DNA of 64,000 bases from the NCBI GenBank assembly GCA_964585575.1, contig CAZPEM010000001.1, forward strand, positions 4,994 through 68,993, written 5' to 3'. This DNA is from an uncultured Chitinophagaceae bacterium. GTDB lineage: Bacteria > Planctomycetota > Planctomycetia > Pirellulales > UBA1268. A program made the translations under genes and the position numbers. Positions 4,300 through 48,353 of the stretch are shown here, in pieces. The first letter of the stretch is position 1. Each line of letters opens with the position of its first letter. Below the pieces are notes generated by a model. That model was not told the origin of the DNA, made no database searches, and saw nothing but the letters and a program-made list of their open reading frames with translations.

Positions 4300-4875
4300 A
4301 TGCTCACGCTCGTCCGGTTTCTGCTCGGCTTCATGCTGGTCTTCACGGCCCTGTTCCTGATCCTGCTGGTGCTCATCCAGCGGGGCCGCGGCGGCGGACT
4401 CGCGGGGGCCTTCGGCGGCGCGGGCGGCCAGAGCGCGTTCGGCACGAAGGCGGGCGACATCTTCACGAAGATCACGATCGGCGTCGCCGGCTTCTGGATC
4501 ATCCTCTGCATCGTTGCCATCAATGTGCTCGGCCGGCAGCAGTCGCTCTTTTCGGGATCGCTCGGTTCGTCGGCACCACAGGCCGTGCAGGCCGGCCCCG
4601 GCGACACGCCCCCGGCCGCCACGAATCCCCCGGCGGACGGCGGGCCAGCTCCGGTCGAGCAGTCGGACGAGAAAACGACGACCGACAAAACGACGACTGA
4701 AGAAAACTCGACGAAGCCGGCGAACACCGAGCCCGCAAAGGCCGATGCCACTCCTCCGCAGTCGCCCGCCGCTGCGACCCCGGCTGTGCCACCGGCCCCG
4801 GCTGTGCCACCGGCACCGGCTGCGCCGGCTGCTGCTGTGCCACCGGCAACGCCTCAACCGGCTGCCGCGAACTGA
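4300..4875 (+). CDS. secG: Preprotein translocase subunit SecG with a long Pro/Ala/Thr-rich C-terminal extension
   Basis: ATG 4300 lies inside a longer GC-artefact ORF (3610-4875). The two-TM SecG core is present (FLILLVLIQRGRGGGLAGAFGGAGGQSAFG...ITIGVAGFWIILCIV), and the gene sits in the conserved position after tpiA. The core is followed by a low-complexity tail of ~110 aa. Confidence 0.85.
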   Translation: MLTLVRFLLGFMLVFTALFLILLVLIQRGRGGGLAGAFGGAGGQSAFGTKAGDIFTKITIGVAGFWIILCIVAINVLGRQQSLFSGSLGSSAPQAVQAGPGDTPPAATNPPADGGPAPVEQSDEKTTTDKTTTEENSTKPANTEPAKADATPPQSPAAATPAVPPAPAVPPAPAAPAAAVPPATPQPAAAN

Positions 4876-8127: not shown

Positions 8128-9138
8128 ATGATCGACGTCGCCATTCTCGGTGCCACCGGCTACACGGCGGTCGAACTGATCAAGCTCCTCCTGCGGCACC
8201 CGCAGGCGAGGATCACGGCCGTCACGAGCCGGCAGGACGGGCGGCCCGCGATCTCGACCGTCCATCCGAGCCTCGTGGGCCGGCTCGACCTGCCGCTGGA
8301 GGATCTCTCGCCGAAGGAGATCGCCGCGAGGGCCGCGTGCGTCTTCAGCTGCCTGCCGCACGCCGCAAGCGCGGAGGTCGTGTCGCAACTGCTCGATGCC
8401 GGCGCGACGGTCATCGACTTCAGCGCCGACTACCGGCTCGACGACGCCGCGAGCTACCAGGAGTGGTACGGCCACGAGCATCCGGATGCCGGGCGGCTCG
8501 GGAGCGTCGTCTACGGCCTCCCCGAACTCTTCCGCGGGAGGATCAAGGGAGCGAAGCTCGTCGCGAACCCGGGCTGCTACTCGACCTCGGCGATCCTGCC
8601 GCTGGCTCCCCTCGTGAAGGCTGGTCTCATCGAGACGACCGACATCATCGTCGACTCCAAGAGCGGCGTGAGCGGGGCGGGCCGTTCGCCCAAGCTCATG
8701 ACGCACTTCCCGGAGTGCAACGAGAGCCTCTCCGCCTACAACGTCGGCCGCCACCGGCACACGCCCGAGATCGAGCAGGTGATCGGGCGTCATGCAGGCC
8801 GTCGACCGGAGGTGATCTTCACGCCGCAGCTGGCGCCGATGGACCGCGGGATCCTTTCGACGATCTATGCCAAGCCCACCCGCCCGCTCACCGACGACGC
8901 CGTCCTCGCCGCGCTGCGGGAGGCCTACGCGGGGGAGCGGTTCGTGCGGGTCGTCGACCACCTTCCCGCCACGAAGGACACGGTCGATACGAACTTCTGC
9001 GACATCACCGCCCGGGTGGTCCGCGGCCGCGTGCTCCTCATCAGCTGTCTCGACAACCTCGTGAAGGGTGCGAGCGGTGCCGCCGTGCAGAACTTCAACT
9101 GCGTCCACGGTCTTCCCGAACATACCGGCATGCTCTGA
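8128..9138 (+). CDS. argC: N-acetyl-gamma-glutamyl-phosphate reductase
   Basis: N-terminal Rossmann motif ([18 protein letters not shown]), active-site region ([11 protein letters not shown]), and adjacency to argJ. Confidence 0.93.
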
Positions 9139-9146
9139 GCCGCCCG

Positions 9147-10370
9147 ATGCCCATCAACGAGACCCCCACCAAGCTCCCGATCCCGCCCCTGCCCAAGGGC
9201 TTCCGCGCCGCCGGCGTCCACGCCGGGCTCAAGCGCAACCCGACCCGCGAGGACATCTCCCTCATCGTGTCGGATCTCCCCGCGACAGCTGCCGGCGTCT
9301 ACACGACGAACCTCGTCTTCGCGGCGCCGGTCGCCTACGACCGGGCCCGCACGCCCGGCACCGGCTTCCGGGCCGTGGCGATCAACTCGGGCAACGCCAA
9401 CGCCTGCACCGGCAGCCGGGGCCTCGACGACGCCCGGGCGATGGCGCGGGCGGCCGCCGAACGCGTCGGCGTCGCCGAGGAGGGGGTGCTCGTGCTCTCG
9501 ACCGGGATCATCGGCGAGTTTCTTCCGCTCGAGAAGATTCGCGCTGGGCTGGGCGTCGTGGCCGGCAGGCTCGGCACCGACGACGAGTCGCTCGTGACGG
9601 CGGCCCGCGGCATGATGACCACCGACACCCGGCCGAAGCTCTCGGGATCCAGGTTCGAGGCGGGAGGCGACACGATCACGCTCACCGGCATCGCGAAGGG
9701 GGCGGCGATGGTCGGACCGAGGATGGCGACCATGCTCGGGATCGTCATGACCGACGCGGCGATCCTGCCGGCTGATGCCCAGCGGCTGCTCCGGGACGCC
9801 ACCGAAGAGACGTTCAACTGCGTGAGCGTGGACGGCCACACGAGCACGAACGACACGGTGCTGTTTCTTGCCAACGGCGCCGCCCGCGGCACGCCGCTGT
9901 CGGGCAAGGATCTCGACCGCTGCGGCCGGGCGCTCCACGAGGCCTGCGAGACGCTCGCCCGCGAGATTGCCGACGACGGCGAGGGGGCCACGCACGTCCT
10001 GCGGATCGAGATGTCGGGCTGCGGTAGCCGTGATGCCGCCCGGCAGATCGCGAGGACGGTCGCCGACAGCCCGCTTGTGAAGACGGCGATCTGCGGCGCC
10101 GACCCCAACTGGGGGCGGATCGTGTCGGCCGCCGGCTACGCGGGCGTGCCCTTCGACCCGGACAAGCTGCGGCTGAAGCTCAACGGCACGCTCCTGTTCG
10201 AGAGGGGATCCCCCGTGGCGTTCGACGCCGCGAAGGTCTCGGAGTCGATCCGCTCCGCCCGGGAGACCCTGATCGAAATCGACCTCGCCAGCGGCCCGGC
10301 CGGGATCCGGTTCTATTCGAGCGACCTCACGGCCGAGTACGTCCGCCTCAACGCCGATTATCACACGTGA
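9147..10370 (+). CDS. argJ: Bifunctional ornithine acetyltransferase / N-acetylglutamate synthase
   Basis: ATG 9147 lies within ORF 8337-10370. ArgJ motifs are present: GFRAAGVHAGLK, NSGNANACTG, the autoprocessing region GPRMATMLGIVMTDA, and C-terminal NADYHT. Confidence 0.93.
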   Translation: MPINETPTKLPIPPLPKGFRAAGVHAGLKRNPTREDISLIVSDLPATAAGVYTTNLVFAAPVAYDRARTPGTGFRAVAINSGNANACTGSRGLDDARAMARAAAERVGVAEEGVLVLSTGIIGEFLPLEKIRAGLGVVAGRLGTDDESLVTAARGMMTTDTRPKLSGSRFEAGGDTITLTGIAKGAAMVGPRMATMLGIVMTDAAILPADAQRLLRDATEETFNCVSVDGHTSTNDTVLFLANGAARGTPLSGKDLDRCGRALHEACETLAREIADDGEGATHVLRIEMSGCGSRDAARQIARTVADSPLVKTAICGADPNWGRIVSAAGYAGVPFDPDKLRLKLNGTLLFERGSPVAFDAAKVSESIRSARETLIEIDLASGPAGIRFYSSDLTAEYVRLNADYHT

Positions 10371-10382
10371 TACTCCGCGGCT

Positions 10383-10585
10383 CCGAACCCAGCAAAAGTT
10401 GACCGTGAGGGGGTGCCCGTGCCCCGCAGCCGGGCTATGGAAGCAAGCGCAGGCGTGATGCCGGAGCGCTGCGGACATGCAGTGAGCGGAGGTCCGGAGG
10501 ACCGTAGCGAACGTCCGGCCAGGGGCACGGGCAGCCCCGAACCCAGCAGAGTTGACCGTGAGGGGGTGCCCGTGCCCCGCAGCCG
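10383..10585. repeat. Two ~50-nt direct repeats (10383-10432 and 10537-10585) with an embedded 17-nt GC-rich inverted-repeat triad
   Basis: Copy 1 is ccgaacccagcaaaagttgaccgtgagggggtgcccgtgccccgcagccg and copy 2 is ccgaacccagcagagttgaccgtgagggggtgcccgtgccccgcagccg (one substitution and one 1-nt indel). Segment 10522-10538 (ggggcacgggcagcccc) is complementary to gggggtgcccgtgcccc in both copies (10409-10425 and 10562-10578). Confidence 0.8.
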
Positions 10586-10734
10586 ACGCCGGGGGAACGG
10601 ACGCGGAGGAGCCTCAGGCGTATCCTCGCCGAAGCGACGGAGCATTCGCCCCCCGGCGACAATGCTGCATCCTGCGCGTACAATCCCATCGCGGCCCCCC
10701 GGCCGTTAGCGTCCCTCGGTCATTAGAGTCATCC

Positions 10735-10989
10735 ATGCCCACAACGTTCGCCCGTCCGATCTCCCGCCCGCTGAACGCCATCAATCCCGACGATGACGAC
10801 GATCTCGGCGACGAGGAAGACCTCACGATCGCCGAGCCCCTCACCGACGAGGAGTCGAGCTTCGACGACTTCGACGACGAGTTCGACGACGACTTCGAGG
10901 AGGAGAGCAACGACCCCGACTGGGACCACCCCGACGACGACGCCTCGGACGAGCCGCCCCCGGGGAAGGTGCCGGGCAAGAAAAAGTAG
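10735..10989 (+). CDS. Small, extremely acidic hypothetical protein (84 aa)
   Basis: ATG 10735 lies within ORF 10552-10989. GC3 is very high throughout, which supports real coding. About 38% of residues are D/E (DDDDDLGDEEDL...FDDFDDEFDDDFEEE...), and the C-terminus is basic (GKVPGKKK). Confidence 0.65.
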   Translation: MPTTFARPISRPLNAINPDDDDDLGDEEDLTIAEPLTDEESSFDDFDDEFDDDFEEESNDPDWDHPDDDASDEPPPGKVPGKKK

Positions 10990-11033
10990 TCGTCCACGGA
11001 AGGCATCCAAGGAAGGCAGTCCCCACAGCACGC

Positions 11034-11870
11034 ATGCTCCACCTTCATGACCAGATTGGCGAGTCGGTCGCGGCGATCCGCTCCCGCTGGAGCCTGGCCC
11101 CGAAGGCAGGCGTGATCCTGGGGAGCGGCCTCGGCGGGGTTACGGAGGTGATCCGCGACCGGGTGTCGATCCCCTACGGCGAGATCCCACACTTCGCGAA
11201 GTCGACGGCGCACGGCCACGCCGGGCAACTCGTGTGTGGTTCCATCGAGGATGTGCCCGTCTGCGTGATGGAGGGGCGGATGCACGCCTACGAGGGCTAT
11301 CCGCTCTCCCAGATCACGCTTCCCGTCCGGGTGCTCAAGGCGCTCGGTGCGGAGCTGCTCATCGCGACGAATGCCTGCGGCGGCCTCAACCCGACCTACC
11401 GCACCGGCGACATCATGGTGATCGACGACCACATCAACCTGATGAACGACAATCCCCTGATCGGGATCAACGACGACCGGCTCGGGCCGCGGTTTCCCGA
11501 CATGTCGGCCCCCTACGCGGCCGACCTGGCCGACCTCGCCCTCGAGGTCGCCCGGCGGGAAAACTTCGCTGCCCACAGGGGCGTCTACGTCGCCGTCACC
11601 GGGCCGAACCTCGAGACACGGGCCGAATACCGGTTCCTGCGGCTCATCGGGGCCGACGTGGTGGGAATGTCGACGGTGCCCGAGGTGATCGTCGCGGTGC
11701 ATGCGGGCCTCCGGGTGCTCGGCCTCTCGGTGGTCACCGACATGTGCCTGCCCGACGCCCTCGAGGTCGCCGAGGTCGAAAAGATCCTCGCCGTCGCCGG
11801 CTCGGCGGAGCCGAAGCTCCGCGCGATCGTAACGGCTGCTGTGAGGCGGATGCGTCATGTTTCGTCGTAA
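11034..11870 (+). CDS. Purine nucleoside phosphorylase (PNP/MTAP family)
   Basis: Motifs ILGSGLGG, HGHAGQLVCG, MEGRMHAYEGY, ATNACGGLNP and VVGMSTVPEV are present. Confidence 0.9.
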   Translation: MLHLHDQIGESVAAIRSRWSLAPKAGVILGSGLGGVTEVIRDRVSIPYGEIPHFAKSTAHGHAGQLVCGSIEDVPVCVMEGRMHAYEGYPLSQITLPVRVLKALGAELLIATNACGGLNPTYRTGDIMVIDDHINLMNDNPLIGINDDRLGPRFPDMSAPYAADLADLALEVARRENFAAHRGVYVAVTGPNLETRAEYRFLRLIGADVVGMSTVPEVIVAVHAGLRVLGLSVVTDMCLPDALEVAEVEKILAVAGSAEPKLRAIVTAAVRRMRHVSS

Positions 11871-46554: not shown

Positions 46555-48353
46555 CACTGGATCTCGATGAGCCTTTCGACGGTTCCGCTGCGACCCACCC
46601 TGCCGAGCAGGAACTCGCAGGCCAGGTTGCAGCCGAGCACGGAGCGGTTGCGGACGGCGTCGAGCCCCCGATAGACGAGCCACTGGCTCCCGCCGACCTG
46701 GATCCGGTATCCGCAGCCGCGATGCTCGGGGAGGTTCTGCCGGCTGTCGGCGACCGTAAGCCGCCGCCACGTCAGCGGCTCGCCGATCCGTGCCGCGTCG
46801 AGGTCGAGCCAGATCGGCGTGTAGGTCCTCGCGACCCGTGAACGCCTCGCATGCACGAGCCGGCCGGGCTCCGCCTCGAGCCTCCCGTCGCACGAAGCCG
46901 ACGACCATTCCGGCAGCGCCAGCGGCAACGCCATCAGCCGCACCGACTCGTCGAAGCCGATGAGCTCACGGGTTTCTTCGGCGGCCTCGAACTCGATCCC
47001 GGGGCAGACCGGCAGGCCGGTGCGGTACTCGATCTCCATGGCCAGCCGCGGCGAATCGGCGGGACCGGCCCGCGTCGAATCTTCGGAGGGCACGATCGCG
47101 TCCGCAACGAGCAGCACCCGGTCCCGGGGAGCGAAAACGAGCTGCCGTTCGAGTCTCAGACCACGGGACAGCGGCAGCGTCCATTCGGCGAACGTCGTCT
47201 CCGTAGCCCCCTGCGACTTGGCGGCCTTTTCCGACTCGAAGCAGGAATCGGCCCAGGGGCCGCTCGGTTCGAGCGCGACGCCGTCGGCCGAAGCCTCGAA
47301 CGACCACTCGCCGCAGCAGAGCAGTCTGGACTCGACGACGACCTCGAGGTGCATCGCGGACCCGCGCGCATCGACGAGGATCCTCGTGGAGCGACGCCCG
47401 CGGCCGGAGCGGATGACGGCGAAGCCGCCGACGGATCGGCTTGCCGCAGGCTGCAGGCCGTGTCGCCCGGCGACTTCGACGATCGACTCCCATCCCGGTT
47501 GCATCGTCCATCCACCCCGCACGGCGGCGGGTTTTCCGTGACGGCGGTCGGCCGGCAGGAGCCGCATCGCCGTCTCGATCGCCGAGAGCAGGGCGTCGCG
47601 GACGCGGGGGGACCAGGGAACGTCGCCCGTCTCCTCCGCCCGCAGGTGCACTCCCGCCCAGCGGGCGACCGTCTCCAGGATCGCTTCCGATCCGGTCCGT
47701 CCGATCGCGCCATCCGAGGGCATGAGCTGCTCGATTTCCGCCTCGACGGCGGCCACGGCGAGCGGAGCAAAACGGTCGCACGCCTCGACGTCGGCGAAGA
47801 GCCTGCCGAGCACGAGCAGAAATCCGGCCGGCGTCGTGTCGCCGATCTCGAGCGCCGGAAGCAAGGAACTGGCGATCCCCTCGATCCGCTGGAGCGCGGC
47901 CCCGGAGGCGACGCTCGACCGCTTCGACCGCGCGGCCCACGCCAAGCCCCACGCGGCGGCTTCGGCCGCCGTCGCCCGTCCCGCGAGCCCCTCGCCGTTT
48001 TCGGCGGCGTCGATGACCGCGTCGAGCAGGCCGCCCGGCTTCGTGATCTCGGCGGCCTTCTCCCCCGCGGCGATCGCCCGCGCGAGCGACAGCAGCCGCT
48101 TTCTCGGATCGTGCGAGTCGCACTCCGATCCGAGTCGGCGGATCTCGGCGACGGCCACCCTCCGCTTGATCCGCTCCGGCGGCCGCTTGCGGCGGCTCGT
48201 GCGGTGGTGGGGCGGTGTCGGGGACACTGCCGACGGGGACACTGCCGACGGGGACGCTGCCGACGGGGACACTGCCGACGCTTTGGCGTGTACCGCATCG
48301 CCGTTGATCGATGGCCGGGGAAGTTTGCGGGCTTTTCGCTTCGTGCTGTTCAT
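46554..48353 (-). CDS. Hypothetical protein (600 aa) with N-terminal basic/Ser-Pro repeat region
   Basis: The start ATG at 48353 (MNSTKRKARKL...) lies within the longer ORF 46554-49247. The body has high GC3, and I recognised no diagnostic motif. It forms an operon with yggS. Confidence 0.55.
   Translation of the reverse strand: MNSTKRKARKLPRPSINGDAVHAKASAVSPSAASPSAVSPSAVSPTPPHHRTSRRKRPPERIKRRVAVAEIRRLGSECDSHDPRKRLLSLARAIAAGEKAAEITKPGGLLDAVIDAAENGEGLAGRATAAEAAAWGLAWAARSKRSSVASGAALQRIEGIASSLLPALEIGDTTPAGFLLVLGRLFADVEACDRFAPLAVAAVEAEIEQLMPSDGAIGRTGSEAILETVARWAGVHLRAEETGDVPWSPRVRDALLSAIETAMRLLPADRRHGKPAAVRGGWTMQPGWESIVEVAGRHGLQPAASRSVGGFAVIRSGRGRRSTRILVDARGSAMHLEVVVESRLLCCGEWSFEASADGVALEPSGPWADSCFESEKAAKSQGATETTFAEWTLPLSRGLRLERQLVFAPRDRVLLVADAIVPSEDSTRAGPADSPRLAMEIEYRTGLPVCPGIEFEAAEETRELIGFDESVRLMALPLALPEWSSASCDGRLEAEPGRLVHARRSRVARTYTPIWLDLDAARIGEPLTWRRLTVADSRQNLPEHRGCGYRIQVGGSQWLVYRGLDAVRNRSVLGCNLACEFLLGRVGRSGTVERLIEIQ
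48220..48279. repeat. In-frame 15-bp tandem repeat x4 encoding (S-A-V/A-S-P)n on the minus strand
   Basis: ggggacactgccgac at 48220-48234, 48235-48249, 48250-48264 (one substitution) and 48265-48279. Confidence 0.9.

Follow-up and report, generated by a model that had tools for sequence, protein, structure and literature searches.

What fills the 364 nt that separate the stop codon of argJ from the next conserved gene, at 10735, in the 64,000-nt stretch of contig CAZPEM010000001.1 analyzed here (hereafter, the window)? An earlier note had singled out this gap for two near-identical direct repeats and three GC-rich arms, which it read either as a switch or attenuator or as a small mobile repeat. 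We found that positions 10402-10546 of the plus strand hold one complete copy of a ~146-nt repeat family dispersed over intergenic regions of freshwater Planctomycetota. Its members share a covarying, strand-specific fold, occur in multiple dispersed copies and differ among relatives both in their presence and in their subtype. We think it probable that the family is a selfish non-autonomous element that spreads in single-stranded form and lies passively behind argJ.

The repeat family and its distribution

The central part of the gap (10446-10531) matches intergenic DNA elsewhere in the relatives (BLAST against the fetched loci, 84% over 89 nt, E 1e-18). The match in L009 lies between a DUF4143 gene and gmk, and its conserved stretch is flanked by complementary arms of different sequence, i.e., by compensatory changes. 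A search pattern composed of the two best-conserved blocks, GTGAGCGGAGG-N9-13-GTAGCGAACG, recovered 111 stretches in JGI metagenome contigs against ~5 expected by chance; this expectation is our own estimate and is in line with the five singleton chance matches, in Actinomycetota and Rubrivivax, that the window-specific 20-mer GGGGGTGCCCGTGCCCCGCA produced in genome contigs. The pattern had no match in viral contigs, and the viral, phage and plasmid collections yielded nothing but one marginal 47-nt plasmid match. The covariance model R1, scanned over the fetched loci, identifies 137 copies in 107 loci (824 kb in total), often 2-4 and never more than 4 per contig, with ~1 additional copy per 27 kb beyond the copy through which each locus was retrieved; extrapolation from these contig fragments suggests that the number of copies in a genome is of the order of 100, if not higher. 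The earlier note had set a common dispersed repeat against a regulator, and on copy number the dispersed repeat is what was found.

The copies are nearly always intergenic and often lie at most ~50 nt from a stop codon. Where both neighboring genes were called (71 copies), 34 copies sit between convergent genes, about a quarter being expected, 17 and 13 occupy the two co-directional arrangements and 7 lie between divergent genes; the copies thus favor gene 3′ ends but show no preferred orientation with respect to the direction of transcription. This distribution bears on an alternative in which the copies are host-recruited cis-acting 3′-end elements, i.e., terminators lacking a U-tract and possibly acting in both directions, or mRNA-stabilizing hairpins; a stabilizing or terminator role after genes has been proposed for the repetitive extragenic palindromic (REP) elements. 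The excess between convergent genes, the closeness to stop codons (35 nt past that of argJ), the very stable GC-rich closing stem and the lack of a classical terminator in our scan of the argJ locus are all consistent with such a role. However, a terminator has no need of a three-way junction or of a strand-specific G-U pattern, the orientation is random in co-directional gaps, seven copies separate divergent genes, and close relatives do without the element at the same site. Moreover, 3′-end enrichment is equally expected from purifying selection against insertions into promoters, and we regard recruitment by the host as quite unlikely, ranking it second among the rival explanations.

No recurrent protein family adjoins the copies: among the 361 neighboring proteins, the largest clusters are PSD1/PSCyt2, DUF1501, ABC, GATase and SufBD, the first two being hallmark Planctomycetota paralogs. 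In eleven cases two copies are no more than 400 nt apart: five of these pairs are in tandem, five head-to-head (four of them at 16-26 nt) and one tail-to-tail. The close head-to-head pairs (L100 1086-1404, L101 3238-3550, L035 1087-1434 and L072 9445-9755) have unusually AT-rich spacers (e.g., CGCCTTTTTTCAGTTG). Across the family, the AT content at -20 to -11 upstream of the copies is 0.46 versus ~0.35 elsewhere, and a T-run is found upstream in 18/110 copies versus downstream in 3/110.

The conserved fold and its strand

Folding of 85 non-redundant copies with RNAalifold yields a consensus of seven helical segments with a three-way junction, comprising P1 (formed by arms 1 and 2), P2, the P3-P4 arm, the P5 hairpin and four pairs inside the conserved junction. 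In overall shape, a ~21-bp terminal P1, which includes tandem G.A pairs and two further pairs, is followed by a short P2 and by the three-way junction bearing P3-P4, P5 and a conserved purine-rich junction. The consensus is ~146 nt long with sharp ends, there being no conservation beyond ~6 nt outside P1. In a covariation analysis of the kind proposed in the earlier note, 27 of the 41 pairs display compensatory double changes. Such changes affect 27 of 39 pairs, including 14/14 modelled P1 pairs and 8/9 P3 pairs, in the trimmed alignment, where 96.0% of the cells pair, as against 84.7% when shuffled and 33-44% when the partners are slid, and the covariation score of 0.316 (versus 0.115) was matched by none of 500 shuffles. 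Single pairs switch freely, e.g., GC 43 / CG 39 in P4, CG 37 / GC 33 / AU 9 in P5 and AU 39 / GC 27 / GU 9 in P1.

P1 reaches the extreme ends of the element, and the pairs of its terminal extension covary over 112 copies: A.G in 85 and C-G in 16 at -1/+1, G.A in 72 and U-A in 16 at -2/+2, U-A 38, C-G 33 and G-C 19 at -3/+3, and G-C in 98 at -4/+4. The junction is still 80-99% conserved in copies recovered by the covariance model without recourse to the search pattern, at least seven of which have C-G instead of U-A at one predicted junction pair. Taken together, the covariation strongly supports the multi-helix fold. G-U cells outnumber A-C cells by 92 to 15, which identifies the folding strand as the plus strand of the window. 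A fold that is specific to one strand in turn implies a single-stranded intermediate.

The window contains exactly one full copy by R1. It is base-paired from 10405 to 10542, and, when folded alone, its minimum free energy (MFE) structure (-86.8 kcal/mol, z -5.6) matches the family fold. The parts of the copy and the DNA immediately around it are as follows:

10377-10401 (+): leader GCGGCTCCGAACCCAGCAAAAGTTG, the first 13 nt of which resemble the unit 3′ end GCAGCCCCGAACC; first half of direct repeat 1, with the D3 repeat at 10377-10394 / 10531-10548; probably what remains of an upstream unit, together with a linker
10402-10546 (+): complete copy of the ~146-nt structured repeat (R1, 119.8 bits, E 7.6e-22, model positions 1-146)
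10405-10425 (+): 5′ strand of P1, consisting of the terminal extension GUGA (10405-10408) and arm 1 (10409-10425); pairs with 10522-10542
10429-10435 (+): 5′ strand of P2, GCCGGGC; pairs with 10513-10519
10436-10479 (+): P3-P4 arm, containing the P3 and P4 helices
10436-10439/10476-10479 plus 10443-10445/10470-10472 (+): P3, with a purine-rich internal loop typical of the window subtype
10447-10450/10466-10469 (GCGC/GCGC) plus 10452-10454/10460-10462 (GGC/GCC) (+): P4
10480-10512 (+): conserved junction and P5 hairpin, comprising AGUGAGCGGAG, GGUCC-GGA-GGACC (10491-10503) and GUAGCGAAC; the best-conserved part of the family
10513-10519 (+): 3′ strand of P2
10522-10538 (+): middle arm, i.e., the 3′ strand of P1, followed by the terminal extension GAAC (10539-10542)
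10543-10585 (+): linker CCAGCAGAGTTGA and 30-nt 5′ fragment of a second tandem unit; second half of direct repeat 2, with the 36-nt exact repeat
10586-10655 (+): rest of the DNA that is absent from the relative L007 in the alignment

The purine-purine internal loop of P3 (UGGAAGC / GCGGACA) defines the subtype of the window copy, which is also represented by L035, L046, L053, L016:4309, L096:11514, L105:4993 and L108:2; in the main subtype the helix is uninterrupted there (UGCUGAC / GUCAGCA). The P4 loop almost always contains GGA, which is also the commonest form of the P5 loop. P4 is replaced in one subfamily, and the P4 loop of the window copy reads GUGA. At an orthologous locus with flanking proteins that are 98-100% identical (L077 4567-4738 versus L029 7276-7422 and L037 11583-11729), the L077 copy has the P4 loop AUGGAU swapped for a 31-nt hairpin, CGACCAATCCGCC-TGC-GGCGGATCGGTGCCC. 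This hairpin is the hallmark of a subfamily of ~172 nt (L015, L016, L061, L064, L070, L086, L105 and L122), and the swap suggests copy-to-copy conversion or a nested mini-insertion.

This anatomy invites comparison with a multi-copy functional small RNA that acts in trans, either by titrating an RNA-binding protein with its GGA loops and purine-rich junction, as CsrB/RsmZ do through GGA hairpin loops, or as the self-cleaving ribozyme of a mobile element. In favor of such a function are the strand-specific fold with abundant covariation in every variable helix, the conservation of unpaired junction nucleotides (also in the pattern-independent copies), the exchange of tandem G.A pairs for Watson-Crick pairs, the variable length of a peripheral helix (P4, a longer hairpin in the subfamily) and the prevalence of GGA in the two loops. 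The surroundings of the copies argue otherwise. Nothing is conserved upstream of about -8, sigma-70-like promoters precede 0-1 of 110 copies, the same as in controls, neither a terminator nor a U-tract follows, with a downstream T-run in just 3/110, and co-directional copies are oriented at random (13 versus 17). Truncated, overlapping and partial copies are frequent, the window copy itself lacks the P4-loop GGA, and presence or absence differs between near-identical strains. We consider this the foremost of the rival explanations, though an unlikely one.

The Rfam search that the earlier note had suggested was performed with Rfam 15 at permissive E-values on three copies (those of the window and L009, and the consensus-like one of L078), and it returned no family match, only sub-threshold chance matches to microRNAs and snoRNAs. 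Hammerhead-like (CUGAUGA...GAAA) and group II intron domain-5-like junctions were tried and rejected, as their conserved nucleotides and pairings do not correspond; signal recognition particle RNA, RNase P and Y-RNA were rejected with the empty Rfam result. A CRISPR-like array was also dismissed, there being only two repeats and a 117-nt 'spacer' that is itself the conserved part. Our literature search on REP elements, miniature inverted-repeat transposable elements (MITEs), RNA motifs and repeat elements of Planctomycetes found no account of a ~146-nt family, which appears to be undescribed.

The argJ locus and the proposed switch

The repeats, the arms with their pairing at 16 of 17 positions, their coordinates, the gap after argJ and the lack of a U-tract, all described in the earlier note, were confirmed. 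The direct repeat is exact over 36 nt (10397-10432 = 10550-10585) and is extended by the 18-nt D3 blocks, which are 89% identical and are separated from the 36-nt blocks by a 1-nt indel; BLAST aligns 10377-10432 with 10531-10585 at 92.9% over 56 nt. The inverted middle arm, GGGGCACGGGCAGCCCC, is complementary at those 16 of 17 positions to GGGGGTGCCCGTGCCCC in both repeat copies, at distances of 96 nt (first copy) and 23 nt (second copy). The exact 17-mer occurs nowhere else in the window; with up to three mismatches there are five matches against 0.96 expected, three of them at the argJ locus. The 28-nt leader is likewise unique within the window, and the same leader precedes the copies in L126 and L127.

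The two repeats noted previously are real, but they do not delimit a ~50-nt duplicated element; the repeated unit is the junction of consecutive units of the ~146-nt element, arranged in tandem with a 154-nt period. The locus comprises 1.4 such units, in the order 13-nt unit-3′-end-like GCGGCTCCGAACC, linker, full unit, linker, 30-nt 5′ fragment of the next unit and ~70 nt of further DNA. The direct repeat and the third arm exist because of this tandem layout of a full unit and the 5′ fragment of the next. The fragment consists of CCGTGA, arm 3 (10562-10578) and GCAGCCG, ends at 10585 and obtains just 13.5 bits (E 0.55) when R1 is applied to 10555-10616. The DNA that follows (10586-10655) has no significant BLAST homology in the window or in any of the fetched loci.

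In the switch reading, the middle segment would alternate between its upstream and downstream partners and in this way determine the read-through from argJ to the gene that follows. All three segments are indeed present, and either pairing could form; at the window locus alone, mutually exclusive helices can be drawn as in a riboswitch or attenuator. However, the helix of arms 1 and 2 is the outer stem of the family, present at more than 100 unrelated intergenic sites with no particular gene family downstream, whereas the third arm is a non-conserved partial duplicate; of 103 copies, the only ones with such an arm are the window copy and members of a single array of complete tandem copies. For 10371-10600, both the MFE and the centroid fold use the pairing of arm 1 with arm 2 and not that of arm 2 with arm 3. 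Since the third arm is not a family feature and these folds use arm1-arm2, the switch is not supported. Unlike riboswitches and attenuators, the family has no gene association, conserved alternative pairing or terminator, it adjoins unrelated genes and has no Rfam match, and the element lies 3′ of argJ rather than upstream of a gene. No U-tract or other terminator-like site follows the element at this locus, and the downstream gene has a promoter-like site of its own, shared with a relative (L007) that lacks the insert. On such comparative sequence data the switch is already contradicted, and we deem it highly improbable, placing it last among the rivals.

The genes and the promoter-like site around the gap are the following:

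8128-9138: argC, the gene upstream of argJ
9147-10370 (+): argJ (Pfam ArgJ, E 2.5e-133), whose stop codon is 35 nt ahead of the paired 5′ end of the element
10656-10684 (+): promoter-like site GCGACA-17 nt-TACAAT, ahead of the acidic-protein gene, outside the insert and common to L007
10735-10989 (+): conserved gene for an 84-aa acidic protein, with syntenic 81-84-aa genes in relatives
11034-11870: gene of the purine-nucleoside-phosphorylase (PNP) family

The promoter-like site is the only one in 10100-11100 (0.0 expected), and its TACAAT aligns with L007 and L008, so that the acidic-protein gene is probably served by a promoter of its own, independently of argJ. The protein is extremely acidic, with runs of D/E and a basic PGKKK tail, and belongs to no Pfam family; its gene lies between argJ and the PNP gene in every relative examined, always coding for 81-84 aa. 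Exact look-ups with the PNP and acidic-protein sequences returned no record. Elsewhere in the window there are tandem repeats at 48219-48278 (four units of 15-nt CGGGGACACTGCCGA) and at 4774-4857 (18/33-nt CCGGC.CCGGCTGTGCCA), both of which are probably repetitive coding sequence.

Syntenic contigs of relatives, reached through ArgJ homologs, show the region to be an insertion. The gap between argJ and the acidic-protein open reading frame is 86, 74 and 119 nt in relatives with 95%, 88% and 82% ArgJ identity, respectively, as against 364 nt in the window; by alignment, ~280 nt (10377-10655) are extra in the window, and sequence shared with the 95% relative, L007, resumes at 10656. The loci L126 (GCA_036747375.1) and L127 (GCA_002405515.1), with ArgJ proteins 98-99% identical, carry a different repeat subtype at the same site, in a copy truncated after P5 and followed by unrelated DNA. 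In these two (L126 4259-4940 and L127 4259-4553), unrelated sequence replaces the acidic-protein gene after the truncated copy, and the 3′ flank of argJ is a rearrangement hotspot. In the window, yicC is directly followed by gmk, with no copy at the site where L009 has one. Similarly, where L100 has two head-to-head copies, L116 has one, along with ~12 nt left from an arm; the single copy of L119 corresponds in L098 to a full copy and a 3′ half-copy; and at the PSD1-DUF1501 gene pair the element is on a different side in L048 than in L098, L119 and L080. Taken together, these comparisons show that, over short evolutionary times, copies are gained, lost, partly duplicated and replaced by one another.

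A few observations concern individual loci. In L009, beside the DUF4143 gene, 28-nt inverted repeats (2204-2231 and 2686-2713, 96% complementary) enclose 454 nt that include the structured repeat, and each holds the palindrome GGCAAGCG...CGCTTGCC; they resemble a composite element or another family of hairpin repeats. The half-copy of L098 is accompanied by a similar small hairpin, GGGCAAGTT-ACA-AACTTGCCC. L001 (Logan SRR6262246), the sole short-read contig with an identical argJ, ends in the 5′ arm of the repeat (window 10421), as is typical when assembly breaks at a repeat, and illustrates how the family splits up short-read assemblies of these genomes.

Proposed mobility and likeness to known elements

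The family is a small structured dispersed bacterial repeat that fits the definition of neither a MITE nor a REP element. The earlier suggestion of a small MITE- or REP-like mobile repeat is borne out in substance, as the element is dispersed, multi-copy and polymorphic in presence and absence, although these formal definitions do not apply. Its closest analog is bcr1 of the Bacillus cereus group, likewise a dispersed repeat of ~150 nt with a branched fold kept by compensatory changes. The bcr1 elements are ~155 bp long, non-coding and dispersed over intergenic regions, with a distribution that is not kept between related strains, and their branched (cruciform-like) predicted structure, maintained by compensatory changes, has placed them in a special class of non-autonomous mobile elements (PMC3184786). 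In contrast to the Planctomycetota family, which displays no target-site duplication, bcr1 has 5-bp direct repeats at the insertion site. It is known to be transcribed, belongs to another phylum and has no sequence relationship to our family. A three-way junction, a conserved purine-rich core and terminal pairing that reaches the ends in turn set the Planctomycetota family apart from bcr1.

REP families have been reported in Planctomycetes (PMC3733652). With the REP/REPIN/BIME elements (RAYT, HUH Y1) our family shares GC-richness, intergenic location, high copy number, a preference for gene 3′ ends and convergent genes, the lack of a target-site duplication, a strand-specific hairpin that tolerates G.T/G.U pairs and the occurrence of inverted doublets and clusters. 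However, a REP element is a simple palindrome of 20-40 nt with a GTAG or CGTC tag at one end, and a REPIN consists of two such units, whereas the Planctomycetota element has ends of the form G-N-G-A ... G-A-N-C (then C-G) and its only GTAG is internal, in GUAGCGAAC; at 146 nt and with a multi-branched fold, it is not a REP palindrome. No RAYT gene was found in the fetched loci. The MITEs (Correia/NEMIS, RUP, ERIC and Nezha) resemble the family in size range, lack of coding capacity, stable fold, intergenic dispersal and presence/absence polymorphism, with the P1 arms corresponding to terminal inverted repeats (17 nt, or ~21 when extended). Unlike a MITE, its interior is under structural selection with covariation and is not the decaying remnant of a transposase gene, and the absence of a target-site duplication shows that it is not a classical MITE. 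An IS200/IS605 PATE or a TnpB omega-RNA was also considered: there is no adjacent tnpA or tnpB among the neighbors, and the two ends of the element pair together rather than forming separate end hairpins.

We posit a selfish non-autonomous element that would be copied via a single-stranded DNA (ssDNA) or RNA intermediate by a factor encoded elsewhere in the genome. New copies would tend to land beside existing ones and would be tolerated mainly at the 3′ ends of genes. At this site, the argC-argJ message would carry the element as its transcribed 3′ tail, where the GC-rich P1 might at most act as a barrier to 3′ exonucleases or as a weak terminator; the downstream acidic-protein gene would keep its own promoter and escape regulation by the element.

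Several points weigh against this proposal. The test for target-site duplications (direct repeats of 3-8 nt at all offsets 0-21 in 111 copies, against 30 permutations) found none, the only excess of direct repeats lying within the conserved ends of the element itself. The fetched loci revealed neither a mobility enzyme nor an autonomous partner nor a transposition intermediate: the proteins encoded next to the copies include no transposase, reverse transcriptase or nuclease, and none of the 361 belongs to a parent insertion sequence sharing the ends of the element. The arm remnant in L116 indicates that some of the polymorphisms are deletions, not insertions. With its invariant unpaired purines, the conserved three-way junction exceeds in complexity every known recognition hairpin of a transposase and looks more like a functional RNA. 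The sample of the family is also biased by a pattern that held two junction blocks invariant, so that its diversity is under-sampled; the statistics on genomic context come from a crude GC3-based gene caller, and the per-genome copy number is the product of extrapolation.

A bolder reading, which we hold to be doubtful, is that the family is a hitherto unknown type of functional structured RNA, or of structured ssDNA, with a part in propagating itself. It might be a self-cleaving or otherwise catalytic three-way-junction RNA of a retro- or rolling-circle-type element, in which case the permuted 154-nt, 1.4-unit layout at argJ and the tandem arrays at other loci would be integrated concatemers; alternatively, it might be a recognition RNA for a mobility or defense protein encoded in trans.

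For the annotation of the argJ locus, the gap holds a repeat insertion and no regulator of arginine or nucleoside metabolism, and the insertion explains the assembly break in short-read data. For the phylum, it adds what is apparently an undescribed and abundant structured element of freshwater Planctomycetota; to our knowledge, almost no non-coding RNAs or small mobile elements have been characterized in Planctomycetota. The covariation support for this family equals that of many accepted RNA families. A partner enzyme or an RNA activity, if found, would establish a mechanism of mobility or of RNA action that is new. Should it be only a selfish repeat, the family is still of use for tracking genome dynamics at the strain level and as a warning to pipelines that seek to discover structured RNAs.

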